NCBI GenBank assembly: GCA_963717465.1
Contig: OY970340.1
Location: 1,760,001 to 1,824,000, forward strand
Length of the DNA stretch: 64,000 nt
Direction: 5' to 3'
Origin: Candidatus Bathyarchaeota archaeon
GTDB lineage: Archaea; Thermoproteota; Bathyarchaeia; Bathyarchaeales; Bathycorpusculaceae
In this document: piece after piece, positions 57,825 through 64,000 of the stretch
How positions within the stretch are numbered: position 1 is the stretch's first letter
How the letters are laid out: each line of letters begins with the position of its first letter
Translations under genes and position numbers: made by a program
The notes under the pieces: model-generated
What the model saw: only the letters and a program-made list of their open reading frames with translations
Told to the model about the DNA's origin: nothing
The model's database searches: none

Positions 57825-60071
57825 ATGTCTGAAATCAAGAATGTGATTTGTGCAGTCTGTGACAAAGGATGCCCGCTTAAGGTCAAAGTAAACAACAATA
57901 AAATGGTTAGCGCCCAGGGACTTATGGATTCCAAAGTTATATGCATGAAACCTCAATTTGCAAATGATTACATCAATCATCCGCAAAGATTATTGTATCC
58001 ACTGAAGAACGTAGGCTCAAGAAGAGGAGAGCAAAAATGGAAACGTATCACTTGGGAACAAGCATTAGATGAAATTGCATTTAAGCTGGAAAAAATTATA
58101 AAAAAATATGGACCGGAATCATTCGCCGTTTCTACATTGCCAGTTAATGCAGGGGTAGATCAGGGAATGGTTCGAAGATTAATGAATCTGCTTGGTAGTC
58201 CGAACTGGATGAGCGGTTTATCGATGTGTATGGGTAATACTGCGCAGGTTCACAGAACTACTTTAGGCTGGTTCCCAATGGGTGATTATACACATGCAAA
58301 ATGCATTGTATATATTGGTCATAATCCACATGAACAAAACTGGGTGATGGAATACTATCAGCTATTGCAGGCTAAGGAACGAGGTGCAAAACTCATTGTT
58401 CTTGATCCACGCAAGTCACAGTGTGCAAATCTTGCTGACCTCTATTTACCCCTCCGTTATGGCACAGATGCCGCGATGCTCTTAGGTTGGCTGAATATAA
58501 TTATTAACGAAGAGCTTTATGACAAAAAGTTTGTTAAAAAATGGACAATTGGCTTTGACGAACTTAAGGAAAGAGTGCAGGACTATCCATTGGAAAAGGT
58601 TGCCAAAATAACCGACTGCAAGGCTGAGGATATCAAAAAAGCAGCCATGATGTATGCGACACAAGGACCTTCAATCATCCCTTGGAGTGTTAATTTTGAC
58701 ATGAATGTAAACAGTACATCCCTTATCCGCTGTCATAGTATTCTGGCTGCCATCTGTGGATATCTAAACAAAAGCGAAATGCTGGGCTATCTAAATCCTG
58801 ATGTTGTGACAATTTCAGAAGTAGAAATGCATGAAGCATTGCCTGACGAAAAGAAAAAGATACAGTTGGGAACCAAGACTTATCCATTATTTACTTATGA
58901 AGGCTTGAAAAAACTGAATGAACCCTCTAAAAGAGTGTATGGACGGGAGTACTGCAATGTTATATCCAGTTTCATGGCGCACCCACCTACGGTATTTAAG
59001 GCAATGCGAACTGGATCGCCATATGCTGTTAAGGCATTTTTTATCTTGGGCGGAAATCCACTGATGGGATATGCCAATCAGCAAGGTGTTTTTGAGGCAA
59101 TGAAAAATCAGGAACTGATTGTGAGCTTTGATCACCTATTAAATCCGTCAGCTCAATTGGCTGATTATGTCTTGCCTGGGGATGCTTGGCTGGAAAGACC
59201 ATCCTTATTTCCGCTATTCGATTTAGCGCCAATAGCCATTCCTTTTCAGCAAGCCCTTGTGTCTCCTGGAGAGTGCAAAGACTTGTATTTCTTCATTAAG
59301 GGTTTAGCGGATCGGTTGGGGTTAAAGGAATATTTTCCATGGAATAATCTTGTTGAGTTTATGGAATACAGAATTCAAAAATCAGGACTGAAATGGGAAG
59401 CATATGAAGAAACGCCGTTGAAGGAGTTAATGACTATATCTCAATTGTTTTCGCCATTTATGATGAAAAAGCCCATTACGAATAAAGCGATTTCAAAGGT
59501 CGGATTCATGCTGTCGTTGCCTTTTACAAAAGGTGTAGGGGTTGCCACTCCTTCGGGAAAAGTTGAGTTGAAAAGTAGTATTCTCGAAGGGCTTGGATAT
59601 GATTCGTTGCCTTATTATAAAGAACCACAACAAACCCCGATTTCAAATCCAAAGCTGGCTAAAGAGTACCCGTTGACACTGTTCATAGGATTGAGAGAAG
59701 GACCATACTATAATACCAATCTGCGTCATGTTGAAGGTTTAAGAAAGCAGTTGCCTAATCCCCTTGCTCTGATTCACCCGTCGGATGCTGCAAAATATGA
59801 TATTCAAGCAGGCGATTGGATTTGGGTTGAAACCACTCATGGCAAGGTTAAAATGATGGCGCAGCTTGATGAAGTTCAACCGGCTGGAACAATTCGCGTC
59901 CCACATGGATGGTGGTTGCCTGAGTTGGAACCTGGAGAGAAAACCGGATTTTCAGGTGCCATGTGGCATAATGATGGGTTGGTCATCAGTGATGATGATT
60001 GGAATCTTGACCCTGAACAGGGATTGCCAAATCTGAGAGGCGGATTACTGGCCAAGGTTTCGAAAATATAA
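57825..60071 (+). CDS. acetylene hydratase-like W/Mo-bis-PGD enzyme (DMSO reductase family)
   Basis: C9-x2-C12-D13-x2-C16...C40-M-K42; GSPNW...MC135MGNT; LRYGTDAA; TPSGKVEL; DDDWNLDPEQGLPNLRGG. Confidence 0.9.
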   Translation: MSEIKNVICAVCDKGCPLKVKVNNNKMVSAQGLMDSKVICMKPQFANDYINHPQRLLYPLKNVGSRRGEQKWKRITWEQALDEIAFKLEKIIKKYGPESFAVSTLPVNAGVDQGMVRRLMNLLGSPNWMSGLSMCMGNTAQVHRTTLGWFPMGDYTHAKCIVYIGHNPHEQNWVMEYYQLLQAKERGAKLIVLDPRKSQCANLADLYLPLRYGTDAAMLLGWLNIIINEELYDKKFVKKWTIGFDELKERVQDYPLEKVAKITDCKAEDIKKAAMMYATQGPSIIPWSVNFDMNVNSTSLIRCHSILAAICGYLNKSEMLGYLNPDVVTISEVEMHEALPDEKKKIQLGTKTYPLFTYEGLKKLNEPSKRVYGREYCNVISSFMAHPPTVFKAMRTGSPYAVKAFFILGGNPLMGYANQQGVFEAMKNQELIVSFDHLLNPSAQLADYVLPGDAWLERPSLFPLFDLAPIAIPFQQALVSPGECKDLYFFIKGLADRLGLKEYFPWNNLVEFMEYRIQKSGLKWEAYEETPLKELMTISQLFSPFMMKKPITNKAISKVGFMLSLPFTKGVGVATPSGKVELKSSILEGLGYDSLPYYKEPQQTPISNPKLAKEYPLTLFIGLREGPYYNTNLRHVEGLRKQLPNPLALIHPSDAAKYDIQAGDWIWVETTHGKVKMMAQLDEVQPAGTIRVPHGWWLPELEPGEKTGFSGAMWHNDGLVISDDDWNLDPEQGLPNLRGGLLAKVSKI

Positions 60072-62010: not shown

Positions 62011-62089
62011 GCCTGAATAGACCCCTTTGTAGGAGATAAGAACCTATTAAAAATATAAAAGGTGAAAAAAAACGAAAGACACTACTGAA

Positions 62090-64000
62090 ATGACTGAGCA
62101 AAAGAAGTTCTTATGTGCATTCTGTGGAGTTCAGTGTGAAATCCTTGCTACTGTTACAAAAGATGGATTCCTGACTGCTGTCGAGCCTCGGCCCGATCAT
62201 CCAATTAGCCCCGGAGCATATTGTCGAAGGTGGACTTATTATACAGAATACCTATACAAATCAGACCGCCTCAAATATCCTATGAAGAGAGTTGGAAAAC
62301 GAGGCGAAGGCAAGTGGCAGATAATTTCATGGGAACAAGCATTTGACGAAATAGGTGCTAGACTCAGGGAGATAATTGCGAAATACGGCTCAGAAGCAAT
62401 ATACGTTTGGCACGGAACATCCCGTGGAAACCCATATGCAGGAGATACAAAGTTCGTTCGCGCAATCGGAAGCCCAGCTATCGGAGCTCCTGGAGCTGAA
62501 ATCTGATTTGCGCCCAACGTCCGTAGTTTAGGGATAACTTACGGCGTTGGACAATGCCTATCTACAGTGATACCTGGCGTAACGAAATCCATGTATAGCA
62601 CGTTCAATCATACTGAATCAAGTGAATTTATCTGGCCGATGTATCTTCGCGCAATTGAAGCGGGAATGAAGCTTATAACACCAGACCCTAGATTCACTGA
62701 GGTTGTTCGTAATTCTGCCCTCTGGCTTCAGATAAGACCAGGTACGGATGCTGCACTCAACTTGGGCATAGCACATGTGCTCATCGAGGAAAATCTCTAT
62801 GACAAAGAGTTCGTGGAGAAATGGTGTTATGGTTTCGAGCAATTGAAGGAACGCGTCAAAAACTACACACCTGAGAAAGTTGAGGAGATCACTTGGGTTC
62901 CAGCGGACAAAATCAGAGAGGCAGCAAGGACACTGGCAAACAACAAACCACAGTCGGTTCCATTACTAAACTATGGACATACTGAGCCATTCTCAAATAG
63001 CTGGGGAATCAATCGTTCGCGGCACATTCTACCCGCGCTGCTCGGAACCGTTGACGAAGAAGCTGGCGAAACGATGCCAAGCAAACCAAAATGGCGCACT
63101 CTCGAAGATTTCGACGAGCCTGACATCATGCCCATGGGACAAAGAAAGAAATTCCTGAATACTTGGAAAAATCACAAATTCGGAATGGTAGGCTGGGAAG
63201 TTCAAGAATTAATTGGTCAAGCCCAAACCAGAGGATACTGGAAAGGAAACCCATATCTTGGATGCACAGAAGTACATGGATACTTAATGACTCCTTGGAA
63301 TCTAGTAACTCGGTCTGTTCTCGAAGGCAAACCCTACCCTATAAAAGCTTTCATAGGACATCAAGGTTCTGCTCTCAGATGCGGACCCAACCAGAAACAG
63401 GCTCTTGAAGCACTGAAACAAATCGAATTCTACGTTAACATGGACACTTCAGTCATGACTCCCGATGCGATGATGGCAGACTATGTATTACCAGCTGCAA
63501 GTACAGCTGAAAGACCCATGGTCGACCTTATGATTAGTAATGCTTCAGAAATGATCTTTAACGCAAGTGCAGACGCGGTTATTCCGAAGAAAATACCAGG
63601 TCTGTGGGATCACAAGGAAGACTATGAAATGTGGCGGGAATTTACAAAGGCAATCAAGGGTCAAAAATGGATAGATGAGCACTGGCCTCAAAAGAACTAT
63701 TACGAACATTATGAGTGGGTATTCAAACCGGCAGGTATGACGCTTAAAGAAGTCGCTGAGAAGACCCCTATCCTTCCAATATTGGAACCAAGAAGATACG
63801 CGTTGCCAGACTCAGAAACTGGTGAGCCAAGAGGATTCGGAACACCCTCTGGAAAGGTCGAACTATACTCAACAATAGCTGAGAAAGTCGGATGCGACCC
63901 AATGGGTAACCATACAGATCCAGCAGCAAGTCCTTACAGCACGCCAGATATCGCAGCGGAATATCCATTTATTCTGACAACTGGAGCTAGACATGGAGAA
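62090..64000 (+). CDS. DMSO-reductase-family molybdopterin oxidoreductase with in-frame TGA at codon 139 (putative selenocysteine); runs off the window
   Basis: CAFCGVQC...C [4Fe-4S] motif; after TGA 62504..62506 the same frame stays open to 64000 with PDPRFT, IRPGTDAAL, ADYVLPAA, TPSGKVELYS, YPFILTTGAR. Confidence 0.88.
62514..62550 (+). promoter_or_regulatory. SECIS-like hairpin (bacterial type) just 3' of the in-frame UGA
   Basis: CCAACG/CGTTGG, CCGT/ACGG, AGTT/AACT stems, bulged U, GGGA apical loop. Confidence 0.6.

Follow-up and report, generated by a model that had tools for sequence, protein, structure and literature searches.

A 64,000-nucleotide (nt) stretch of the genome of a Candidatus Bathyarchaeota archaeon (contig OY970340.1, positions 1,760,001 to 1,824,000; hereafter the window, with positions counted from its first letter unless given on the contig), taken from a single 3.05-Mb contig, contains a gene for an enzyme of the acetylene hydratase family with an in-frame UGA codon, and a stable RNA hairpin folds within the coding sequence directly downstream of this codon. 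Judging from sequence comparisons, we consider it fairly probable that the hairpin (62514-62550) is a local, per-codon, in-gene signal for the insertion of selenocysteine (Sec) at the UGA, read by machinery of the archaeal type. The evidence comes from the stability of the fold under synonymous recoding, from compensatory changes among the paralogs of the gene, from equivalent hairpins in other UGA-containing genes and from the set of Sec factors encoded in the genome.

The UGA codon and the downstream hairpin

The open reading frame (ORF) starts at 62090, meets a TGA at 62504-62506 and, read through, remains open until an in-frame TAG at 64364-64366, 366 nt beyond the end of the window, with 138 and 619 open codons on the two sides of the UGA. 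The read-through product of 758 amino acids (aa) contains the Pfam domains Molybdop_Fe4S4, Molybdopterin and Molydop_binding and can be aligned with acetylene hydratase (2e7z) along its entire length (E 3.2e-105). The UGA, codon 139, is aligned to the Cys of the 'MCIGNT' stretch of 2e7z, which we take to be the tungsten ligand. With a UGA aligned to the Cys of homologs at a ligand residue, a frame that is open on both sides and Sec machinery present in the genome, the codon very probably stands for a predicted selenocysteine at the metal-ligand position. The features of the locus are as follows, all on the + strand, with the basis of each assignment in parentheses.

62047..62062: A/T-rich TATA-like box TTAAAAATATAAAAGG, upstream of the ATG by about 30-40 nt, a presumed promoter element (sequence reading)
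62090..64000, continuing to 64366: gene for an acetylene hydratase-family Mo/W bis-pyranopterin enzyme, 758 aa, stop codon TAG (ORFs, Pfam, 2e7z match)
62504..62506: in-frame UGA, codon 139, predicted Sec (alignment with the Cys of homologs)
62507..62513: 7-nt spacer UUUGCGC between the UGA and the helix base, 6 nt in the paralogs (sequence, folds)
62514..62550: hairpin (folds, synonymous control, pair counts on 11 paralogs)
62514-62519 / 62545-62550: lower stem, followed by a bulged U at 62520 (fold)
62521-62524 / 62541-62544: middle stem (fold)
62525-62528 / 62536-62539: upper stem (fold)
62529..62535: apical loop UAGGGAU, nt 23-29 after the UGA, which closes to GGGA (62531-62534) in the minimum free energy (MFE) fold (folds)
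57825..60071: paralogous gene with Cys (TGT) in the homologous column, an internal control that has no hairpin (Pfam, fold, synonymous control)

The arms of the hairpin, CCAACG-U-CCGU-AGUU ... AACU-U-ACGG-CGUUGG, form 15 base pairs (bp) with three single-base bulges in the RNAfold prediction, with an energy of -18.0 kcal/mol over 57 nt and -17.7 kcal/mol over 45-50 nt. This is close to the first-pass annotation of the stretch, which described an interrupted helix of about 15 bp beginning 8 nt after the UGA; indeed, the helix base is the eighth base, after the 7-nt spacer. The same annotation placed a loop beginning with G about 25 nt from the UGA, which holds for the MFE fold (loop GGGA, nt 25-28) but not for a near-equivalent alternative, the fold found in the paralogs, with the 7-nt loop UAGGGAU, where the first G comes third.

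When the same 16 codons were recoded using the codon usage of the genome, with the peptide kept, the mean energy was -9.65 kcal/mol (standard deviation 2.64) compared to -17.7 for the actual sequence (z -3.05), and 11 of 2000 recodings were equally stable; the hairpin is accordingly more stable than nearly all of its synonymous recodings, the codon-shuffled control proposed by the first-pass annotation. Among 2233 45-nt segments of the gene (mean -5.99, standard deviation 2.77), the hairpin ranks first, the next distinct fold being at -15.0, and an energy of -17.7 is reached by 0.15% of 12791 segments of this length taken at steps of 5 nt along the + strand of the 64-kb window.

Covariation among the paralogs

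A tblastn search with the first 260 residues of the enzyme identified 14 homologous sites in the genome, of which 11 show TGA in the ligand column; the codon at the other three is TGT, TTT or TCT. The first bases of the TGA codons lie at contig positions 124642, 132694, 480584, 617083, 1134713, 1211628, 1822504, 2055182, 2378454, 2495990 and 2799134; eight of these 11 paralogs are full length and three are truncated or split. All 11 have a hairpin that starts 6-7 nt after the UGA, with a bulged helix of about 14-15 bp, and the apical loop falls within nt 23-30 after the UGA in 10 of them. The loop is UAGGAUU, UAGGAGU or UAGGGUU in eight paralogs and GGAGUUA (nt 24-30) in one other, and the paralog at 1211628 has the 6-nt loop AACGAC (nt 24-29). 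By comparison, the fold downstream of the Cys codon in the paralog at 57825-60071 reaches -9.1 kcal/mol, with a synonymous z of +1.2 and 912 of 1000 recodings equally stable. This Cys paralog is closest to acetylene hydratase itself in its sequence motif.

A screen of the genome for in-frame TGA codons flanked on both sides by 40 or more open codons yielded 364 sites, with a mean downstream fold of -6.8 kcal/mol (standard deviation 4.3). The 13 most stable folds belong to the Mo/W enzyme (10 sites), to HdrA/MvhD (two sites) and to a gene without a Pfam match (one site), which has two UGAs, one of them among these 13. Across all 15 Sec-type sites tested, the synonymous z values lie between -1.6 and -6.0.

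Covariation was assessed after the 11 paralog hairpins had been aligned by codon over 53 nt, with 14 pairs and therefore 154 cells. The common structure has 89.0% of the cells paired compared to 83.9% in column shuffles, none of 500 of which reached this value; when the partners were slid by 1-3 columns, 23-47% of the cells were paired. Two-sided changes occur in five of the 14 pairs, a number reached by two of the 500 shuffles. Relatedness alone can lift sequences above their shuffles even where no structure exists; more weight is carried by the slid controls and by the two-sided changes. Four of the five two-sided changes (A-U to G-C, G-C to A-U, C-G to G-C and C-G to U-A) come from the copy in the window, which contributes the most divergent hairpin of the family and hence the majority of the compensatory changes. 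Its lower stem CCAACG/CGUUGG pairs one base out of register with CCCACG/CGUGGG, for which reason three cells there were scored as unpaired. G-U or U-G combinations, able to pair in the sense RNA only, account for six cells. The helix is maintained through the choice of synonymous sites and through compensatory changes. The covariation expected by the first-pass annotation among UGA-containing orthologs was drawn from these paralogs because no such orthologs of the window copy were found among the 80 best genome loci, and in the metagenome loci TGA occurs only in one GC-rich sequence (see below): the part of the expectation that concerned orthologs thus found no material, and the paralogs do covary.

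These data bear on the possibility that the hairpin is a by-product of coding or of chance, with the conserved peptide GPT...LG..YGVG happening to encode complementary arms. The lower stem indeed lies within conserved residues, and the common paralog peptide, when recoded synonymously, already gives a mean of -12 to -14 kcal/mol. However, the window copy forms the same helix from a different peptide, FAPNVRSLGITYGVG, with only the 11 recodings in 2000 and no other segment of the gene matching it; the third codon positions within the paired arms are fixed, and Cys homologs with similar peptides mostly do not fold. A coding or chance origin therefore appears scarcely credible.

Phylogenetic analysis of 78 proteins with FastTree, from which 11 of the 80 best genome loci (fewer than 650 residues covered, or containing stops) and the three truncated paralogs were left out, placed the eight full-length Sec paralogs in one clade with support 100. 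The window copy is the first (basal) branch of this clade and is 45% identical to the nearest paralog. Eleven UGA copies of a single enzyme family in a 3-Mb genome look like a recent expansion, which probably followed transfer from bacteria. The Cys paralog at 57825-60071 groups, on a long branch, with a cluster from Methylococcaceae (methanotrophs) with support 100, apart from the Sec clade, and is probably of separate origin. Identical copies of the enzyme family are found in a contig of Methylomonas lenta and in a contig of a 'Thermoplasmata archaeon' bin, which suggests a misbinned contig.

Selenocysteine machinery and hairpins in other genes and genomes

The genome encodes SepSecS, the gene for which adjoins a tRNA-Sec gene, as well as a second tRNA-Sec gene and a SelD ORF. 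Two SelB-like ORFs encode fusions of about 730 aa in which a KTI12/PSTK kinase is followed by GTP_EFTU, domain 2 and aSelB_III; residues 276-727 of PSTK::aSelB align to residues 19-478 of the 482-residue, four-domain aSelB chain of Methanococcus (4ac9). Both tRNA-Sec genes have a U:U mismatch at the sixth acceptor pair. Of 401 genomes sampled from the class, 12 have the fusion, and these are also the ones with SepSecS. The second copies of the fusion and of tRNA-Sec are neighbors.

Contig 2827363-2829555, - strand: second PSTK::aSelB gene, 54% identical to the first, directly downstream of the second tRNA-Sec gene
Contig 2829638-2829723, - strand: second tRNA-Sec gene, adjoining the second PSTK::aSelB gene

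The second fusion protein has altered GTPase motifs (GHCKHGKT replaces GHVDHGKT, and EMPGN replaces DLPGH), and this copy is possibly GTPase-impaired. A gene with two in-frame UGAs (contig 2822990-2824228) lies about 4 kb from it.

No match to SelA (PF03841), SelB-wing_2 or SelB-wing_3 was found in a six-frame search of the genome, which is 88% complete by markers, and a SelA/SelB system of the bacterial type was rejected. The first-pass annotation had suggested that this archaeon might decode Sec in the bacterial way, through a horizontally acquired SelAB system with winged-helix domains on its SelB; this is not supported by what was found in the genome, given that SepSecS, tRNA-Sec and PSTK::aSelB are archaeal and that both SelB-like proteins are PSTK fusions with aSelB_III.

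In the loci compared outside this genome, the ligand position of the enzyme is nearly always Cys. Among the 80 top-scoring genome loci (identity up to 46%), 77 of the 79 that could be aligned have Cys (TGC or TGT) and two have other residues, with no TGA; among the best 80 metagenome loci (at most 43% identity), 75 have Cys, three have other residues (one of which, in locus L139, is a misaligned Cys form), and TGA occurs only in L135 (~570-680) and L136 (~780-880). These two loci contain an identical GC-rich sequence with 36-38% identity to the enzyme, TGA at the ligand position and a hairpin of -22.5 kcal/mol that begins 3-4 nt after the TGA; they probably represent a bacterial Sec form of the family. 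The folds downstream of the Cys codon average -9.2 kcal/mol in the genome loci and -10.3 in the metagenome loci, so that the loss of the hairpin in Cys homologs that the first-pass annotation anticipated is borne out for most of them, with a few that fold as stably as the window copy (see below). The UGA form is found in none of the 11 other fusion-bearing genomes, of which only two have Cys forms, and the enzyme family at E<=1e-30 in none of the 36 genomes of the same genus that were sampled. Five genomes with Cys homologs (two of Archaeoglobus and three of Bathyarchaeia/Hecatella) yielded only GTPase matches of about 33% identity in a search for the fusion and accordingly provide no independent test.

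Two further predicted selenoprotein genes of the genome carry the comparison beyond the enzyme family.

Contig 1519923-1522484, - strand: HdrA::MvhD fusion gene with UGAs at residues 212 and 682 (Pfam FlpD, Fer4 and FAD domains)
Contig 951663-952679, + strand: SelD gene with a UGA at codon 14 (ORF)

Each of the two UGAs of HdrA/MvhD is followed by a hairpin of its own, the stem starting at nt 7-8 as in the enzyme paralogs, with the apical loop within nt 23-30 at U212 and at nt 20-24 at U682. Both TGAs and both hairpins (-19.5 to -22.7 kcal/mol) are present in HdrA::MvhD of seven of the 11 other fusion-bearing genomes. At the first site, the seven TGA orthologs all fold at -19.5 to -22.6 compared to -2.9 to -11.6 for 18 Cys rows, and at the second site the seven fold at -22.1 to -22.7 compared to -1.1 to -17.1 for 13 Cys rows, with peptides in the Cys homologs that are nearly the same as in the TGA forms. 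In one relative (G272), a Cys paralog of HdrA::MvhD adjoins the Sec form. In SelD, the UGA position is occupied by Cys in five of the 10 relatives with a SelD match, and a clear hairpin beginning at nt 6-7 after the UGA is present in SelD of the three genomes that are most distant. The hexamer UAGGAU recurs after the UGAs of three unrelated genes: it is found at nt 23-28 in the paralogs, at nt 12-17 after HdrA site 1 and at nt 24-29 after the first UGA of the gene at contig position 2823619, being located in the loop in two of the three and in the 5' arm in HdrA site 1. The window copy has UAGGGAU and one paralog AACGAC, and the hexamer was not taken as evidence of a shared loop motif.

One might suppose that the hairpin has some other function in RNA or DNA, for example in controlling how stable the mRNA is, in pausing transcription or, as a palindrome in the DNA, in binding a protein. 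All pairs of the window copy are Watson-Crick, which makes the element a near-perfect inverted repeat that folds in the antisense strand too. Against this stand the position of the hairpin, which is fixed relative to the UGA in unrelated genes, the restriction of the HdrA fold to the TGA forms and the G-U pairs of the paralogs that work in the sense RNA only, so that we rate a function of this kind as very improbable.

The other origin proposed by the first-pass annotation, namely that the gene came from a Sec-using bacterium, would make the hairpin a relic, a bacterial element carried in with the gene and now without a role. The Sec clade is placed among bacterial sequences (Eggerthellaceae, Syntrophomonas and Chloroflexota), albeit with weak support (90, the fork being drawn open); the enzyme is missing from the sampled genomes of the genus at the threshold given above, and the GC-rich metagenome sequence, found at two loci, shows TGA together with a hairpin of its own. 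A relic would be expected to decay, yet the helix has been kept by compensatory and synonymous changes at 45% identity between paralogs; the named neighbors in the tree are all Cys forms, in line with the Cys counts of 77/79 and 75/80 among the homologs; equivalent hairpins occur in HdrA/MvhD and in the distant SelD genes; and 11 genes would be cut short at the UGA if no signal were functioning there. Persistence of the hairpin as a functionless relic thus seems highly unlikely.

Distal elements, proposed mechanism and known systems

The flanks of the gene leave little space for a selenocysteine insertion sequence (SECIS) in an untranslated region (UTR). Judging from the position of the TATA-like box, the 5' leader is very short and could not accommodate a 5'-UTR SECIS. 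On the 3' side, all eight full-length paralogs have a pyrimidine-rich oligo-T tract that starts 9-28 nt beyond the stop codon; in the window copy, the flank reads TAG ... CCCCCATTTTCTTTTGTTTC within a 91-nt intergenic region (64367-64457), and the next gene, an SCP2-family ORF, starts 91 nt 3' of the stop codon of the enzyme gene. Archaeal RNA polymerase terminates at oligo-T tracts, and the tracts found here look like terminators, which would leave little room for a 3'-UTR SECIS as well.

Conserved structure was not seen in the 3' flanks, where the eight HdrA::MvhD orthologs share almost no invariant columns, in contrast to their coding hairpins, which are nearly identical. A scan of 4911 nt around the enzyme gene, including the 91-nt 3' intergenic region and the next gene, gave no Rfam SECIS match at E<=10 and four chance-level matches to other families, a weak negative because Rfam may hold no archaeal SECIS model. 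No SECIS of the GAA_A type was seen on reading the flanks and in the Rfam scan, no dedicated search with a GAA_A descriptor having been made. A canonical archaeal SECIS in the 3' UTR, which according to the first-pass annotation could have explained the decoding, was accordingly not found in the 3' flanks of the paralogs, in those of the HdrA orthologs or in the Rfam scan.

Several observations weigh against the reading of the hairpin as a Sec insertion signal. In dinucleotide shuffles, seven of 200 sequences were equally stable (z -2.16), which is modest support, and the weakest synonymous z among the paralogs, found in one of them, is -1.6. An energy of -17.7 is reached by 3 of the 77 and 5 of the 75 Cys homologs of the enzyme. 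Since 10 of the 11 paralog hairpins are near-duplicates of one another, the independent support is that of the window copy, two other divergent paralogs, HdrA/MvhD and the distant SelD genes. In SelD of this genome, the fold downstream of the UGA is weak (-6.4), and among 11 SelD genes the six TGA forms (-6.4 to -17.6) overlap with the five Cys forms (-9.3 to -17.3), one Cys SelD folding at -17.3; either a strong hairpin is dispensable at some Sec codons or SelD uses another signal. The loop sequences of the distant SelD hairpins have nothing in common with those of the paralogs, and hence the loop is not universal. The aSelB part of the fusion has no extra RNA-binding domain that could read the hairpin, as judged by Pfam and by its end-to-end alignment with 4ac9, and at 88% completeness the absences from the genome mean 'not found', such that a factor may be missing from the assembly. 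Finally, the shortness of the 3' UTR is deduced from the oligo-T tracts alone.

Part of this evidence would fit a helper element, whereby the hairpin aids recoding through ribosome pausing or hindrance of the release factor while an unseen distal SECIS recruits the Sec factor. The spacing of 6-7 nt is that of recoding stimulators; SelD, if it is decoded at all, is decoded without a strong hairpin, and thus another signal may exist; moreover, loop sequences vary and aSelB comes without a known RNA-binding extension. The distal element that such an arrangement requires is, however, nowhere conserved: there are oligo-T tracts near the stops in 8/8 paralogs, unconserved HdrA 3' flanks in eight orthologs, short 5' leaders and, as a weak negative, no Rfam SECIS match. 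A mere helper role is possible but, in our judgment, unlikely.

If the hairpin is indeed an in-gene Sec insertion signal, a mechanism can be outlined. While the UGA occupies the A site, the lower stem would be located at or inside the mRNA entry site of the ribosome and the upper stem-loop (nt 15-38) just outside; in structures of E. coli SelB with the ribosome (including 5lzb-5lzd), the bacterial SECIS reportedly occupies that same position during the delivery of Sec-tRNA-Sec by SelB. The hairpin would then favor delivery of Sec-tRNA-Sec by PSTK::aSelB-GTP over binding of the release factor, either by tethering the factor or an adaptor, as the bacterial SECIS tethers SelB, or by pausing the ribosome, or by both; sequence alone cannot separate tethering from pausing.

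There is perhaps an even chance that the fusion-bearing archaea decode Sec in a third way, in which each UGA has its own in-gene hairpin, read by a four-domain aSelB, by its fused kinase or by an adaptor, with neither a winged helix nor a UTR SECIS. In that case, the rule of UTR-only archaeal SECIS would be broken by a lineage that combines UGA-adjacent signals with archaeal factors, and the placement of SECIS would not be a domain-level trait, implying either convergence on the bacterial solution or retention of an ancestral one. Such a system would provide a second, independent case in which to study the recruitment of a Sec elongation factor by a hairpin located at the mRNA entry site, and a reason for the PSTK-aSelB fusion in this lineage. 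Selenoprotein finders based on UTR SECIS would miss archaeal genes of this kind, here the 11 copies of the enzyme, which gene callers split at the UGA. A compact cassette of UGA plus hairpin with a single fused factor could also serve the engineering of Sec insertion.

Among known elements, the bacterial SECIS, with E. coli fdhF as the prototype, is similar to the hairpin described here in its location in the coding sequence directly after the Sec UGA, in the presence of one element per UGA, in the small G-containing loop and even in the host gene, a Mo/W enzyme with Sec as the ligand residue. The bacterial model, as given in Fig. 2A and the accompanying part of PMC13188914, specifies a loop of 3-9 nt, an upper stem of 4-16 bp, G in one of the first two loop positions, a UGA-to-loop distance of 16-37 nt and an energy limit of -7.5 kcal/mol. 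All four structural constraints agree with the hairpin, which has a loop of 4 or 7 nt, 15 bp in three segments, a distance of 24 nt (22 for the 7-nt loop) and an energy of -17.7 kcal/mol, in frame within the gene; with respect to the loop G, GGGA fits, and the paralog loop UAGGAUU fits N1-G-G-N-N2 if its A and U pair. The first-pass description of an archaeal, SECIS-like hairpin inside a coding sequence, directly after a Sec-type UGA, is in accord with this model. The differences are that the helix here begins 6-7 nt after the UGA and that the genome has archaeal SepSecS, PSTK and a fused four-domain aSelB, whereas neither SelA nor a SelB winged helix was found. With these trans features not found, the hairpin would work like a bacterial SECIS without belonging to that system.

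The Sec redefinition element of eukaryotes, a hairpin beside the UGA of some selenoprotein mRNAs (e.g., SEPN1) that raises recoding and acts together with a 3'-UTR SECIS, is likewise located in the coding region, only a few bases 3' of the UGA. It is known from few genes, however, and works in company of the 3'-UTR element, whereas here nearly every Sec UGA has a hairpin and no distal SECIS was found.

Archaeal SECIS elements are placed in UTRs in the consulted portions of four sources (PMC13188914, PMC11227280, PMC8211752, PMC9499178), and the reviews among them, to the same extent, assign eukaryotic SECIS to untranslated regions as well and SECIS in coding sequences to bacteria only. No description of a coding-region SECIS in archaea was found in the literature searched, which was mainly non-subscription. 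The euryarchaeal GAA_A SECIS of Methanococcus and Methanocaldococcus and the eukaryotic-like SECIS of Asgard archaea work with the same machinery of tRNA-Sec, PSTK, SepSecS and aSelB, but are described, in the passages cited, as 3'-UTR elements, one per gene, with a single documented 5'-UTR case (PMC13188914, PMC8211752, PMC11227280), in contrast to the hairpin here, which lies in the coding sequence, one per UGA. The GAA_A type is further characterized by three S-S pairs in its upper stem, and the eukaryotic/Asgard type by AAR in its loop. The hairpin at 62514-62550 contains no GAA and no GAA_A bulge, nor AUGA or an AUGA/GA quartet, which sets it apart from both the GAA_A type and the eukaryotic/Asgard type.

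A further published system is that of the PSTK-aSelB fusion itself, known from Bathyarchaeota and one Archaeoglobus (PMC8762117, PMC9499178, as excerpted), and of a tRNA-Sec with a U:U mismatch at the sixth acceptor pair in a Bathyarchaeota lineage (PMC8762117, likewise in excerpt). The words 'SECIS' and 'hairpin' do not appear in the main text of PMC8762117, and the cis element is not discussed there. The archaeon analyzed here, which the two features together suggest to be of the Bathyarchaeia type, shares both of them, the fusion, present in two copies, and the tRNA-Sec with the U:U mismatch.

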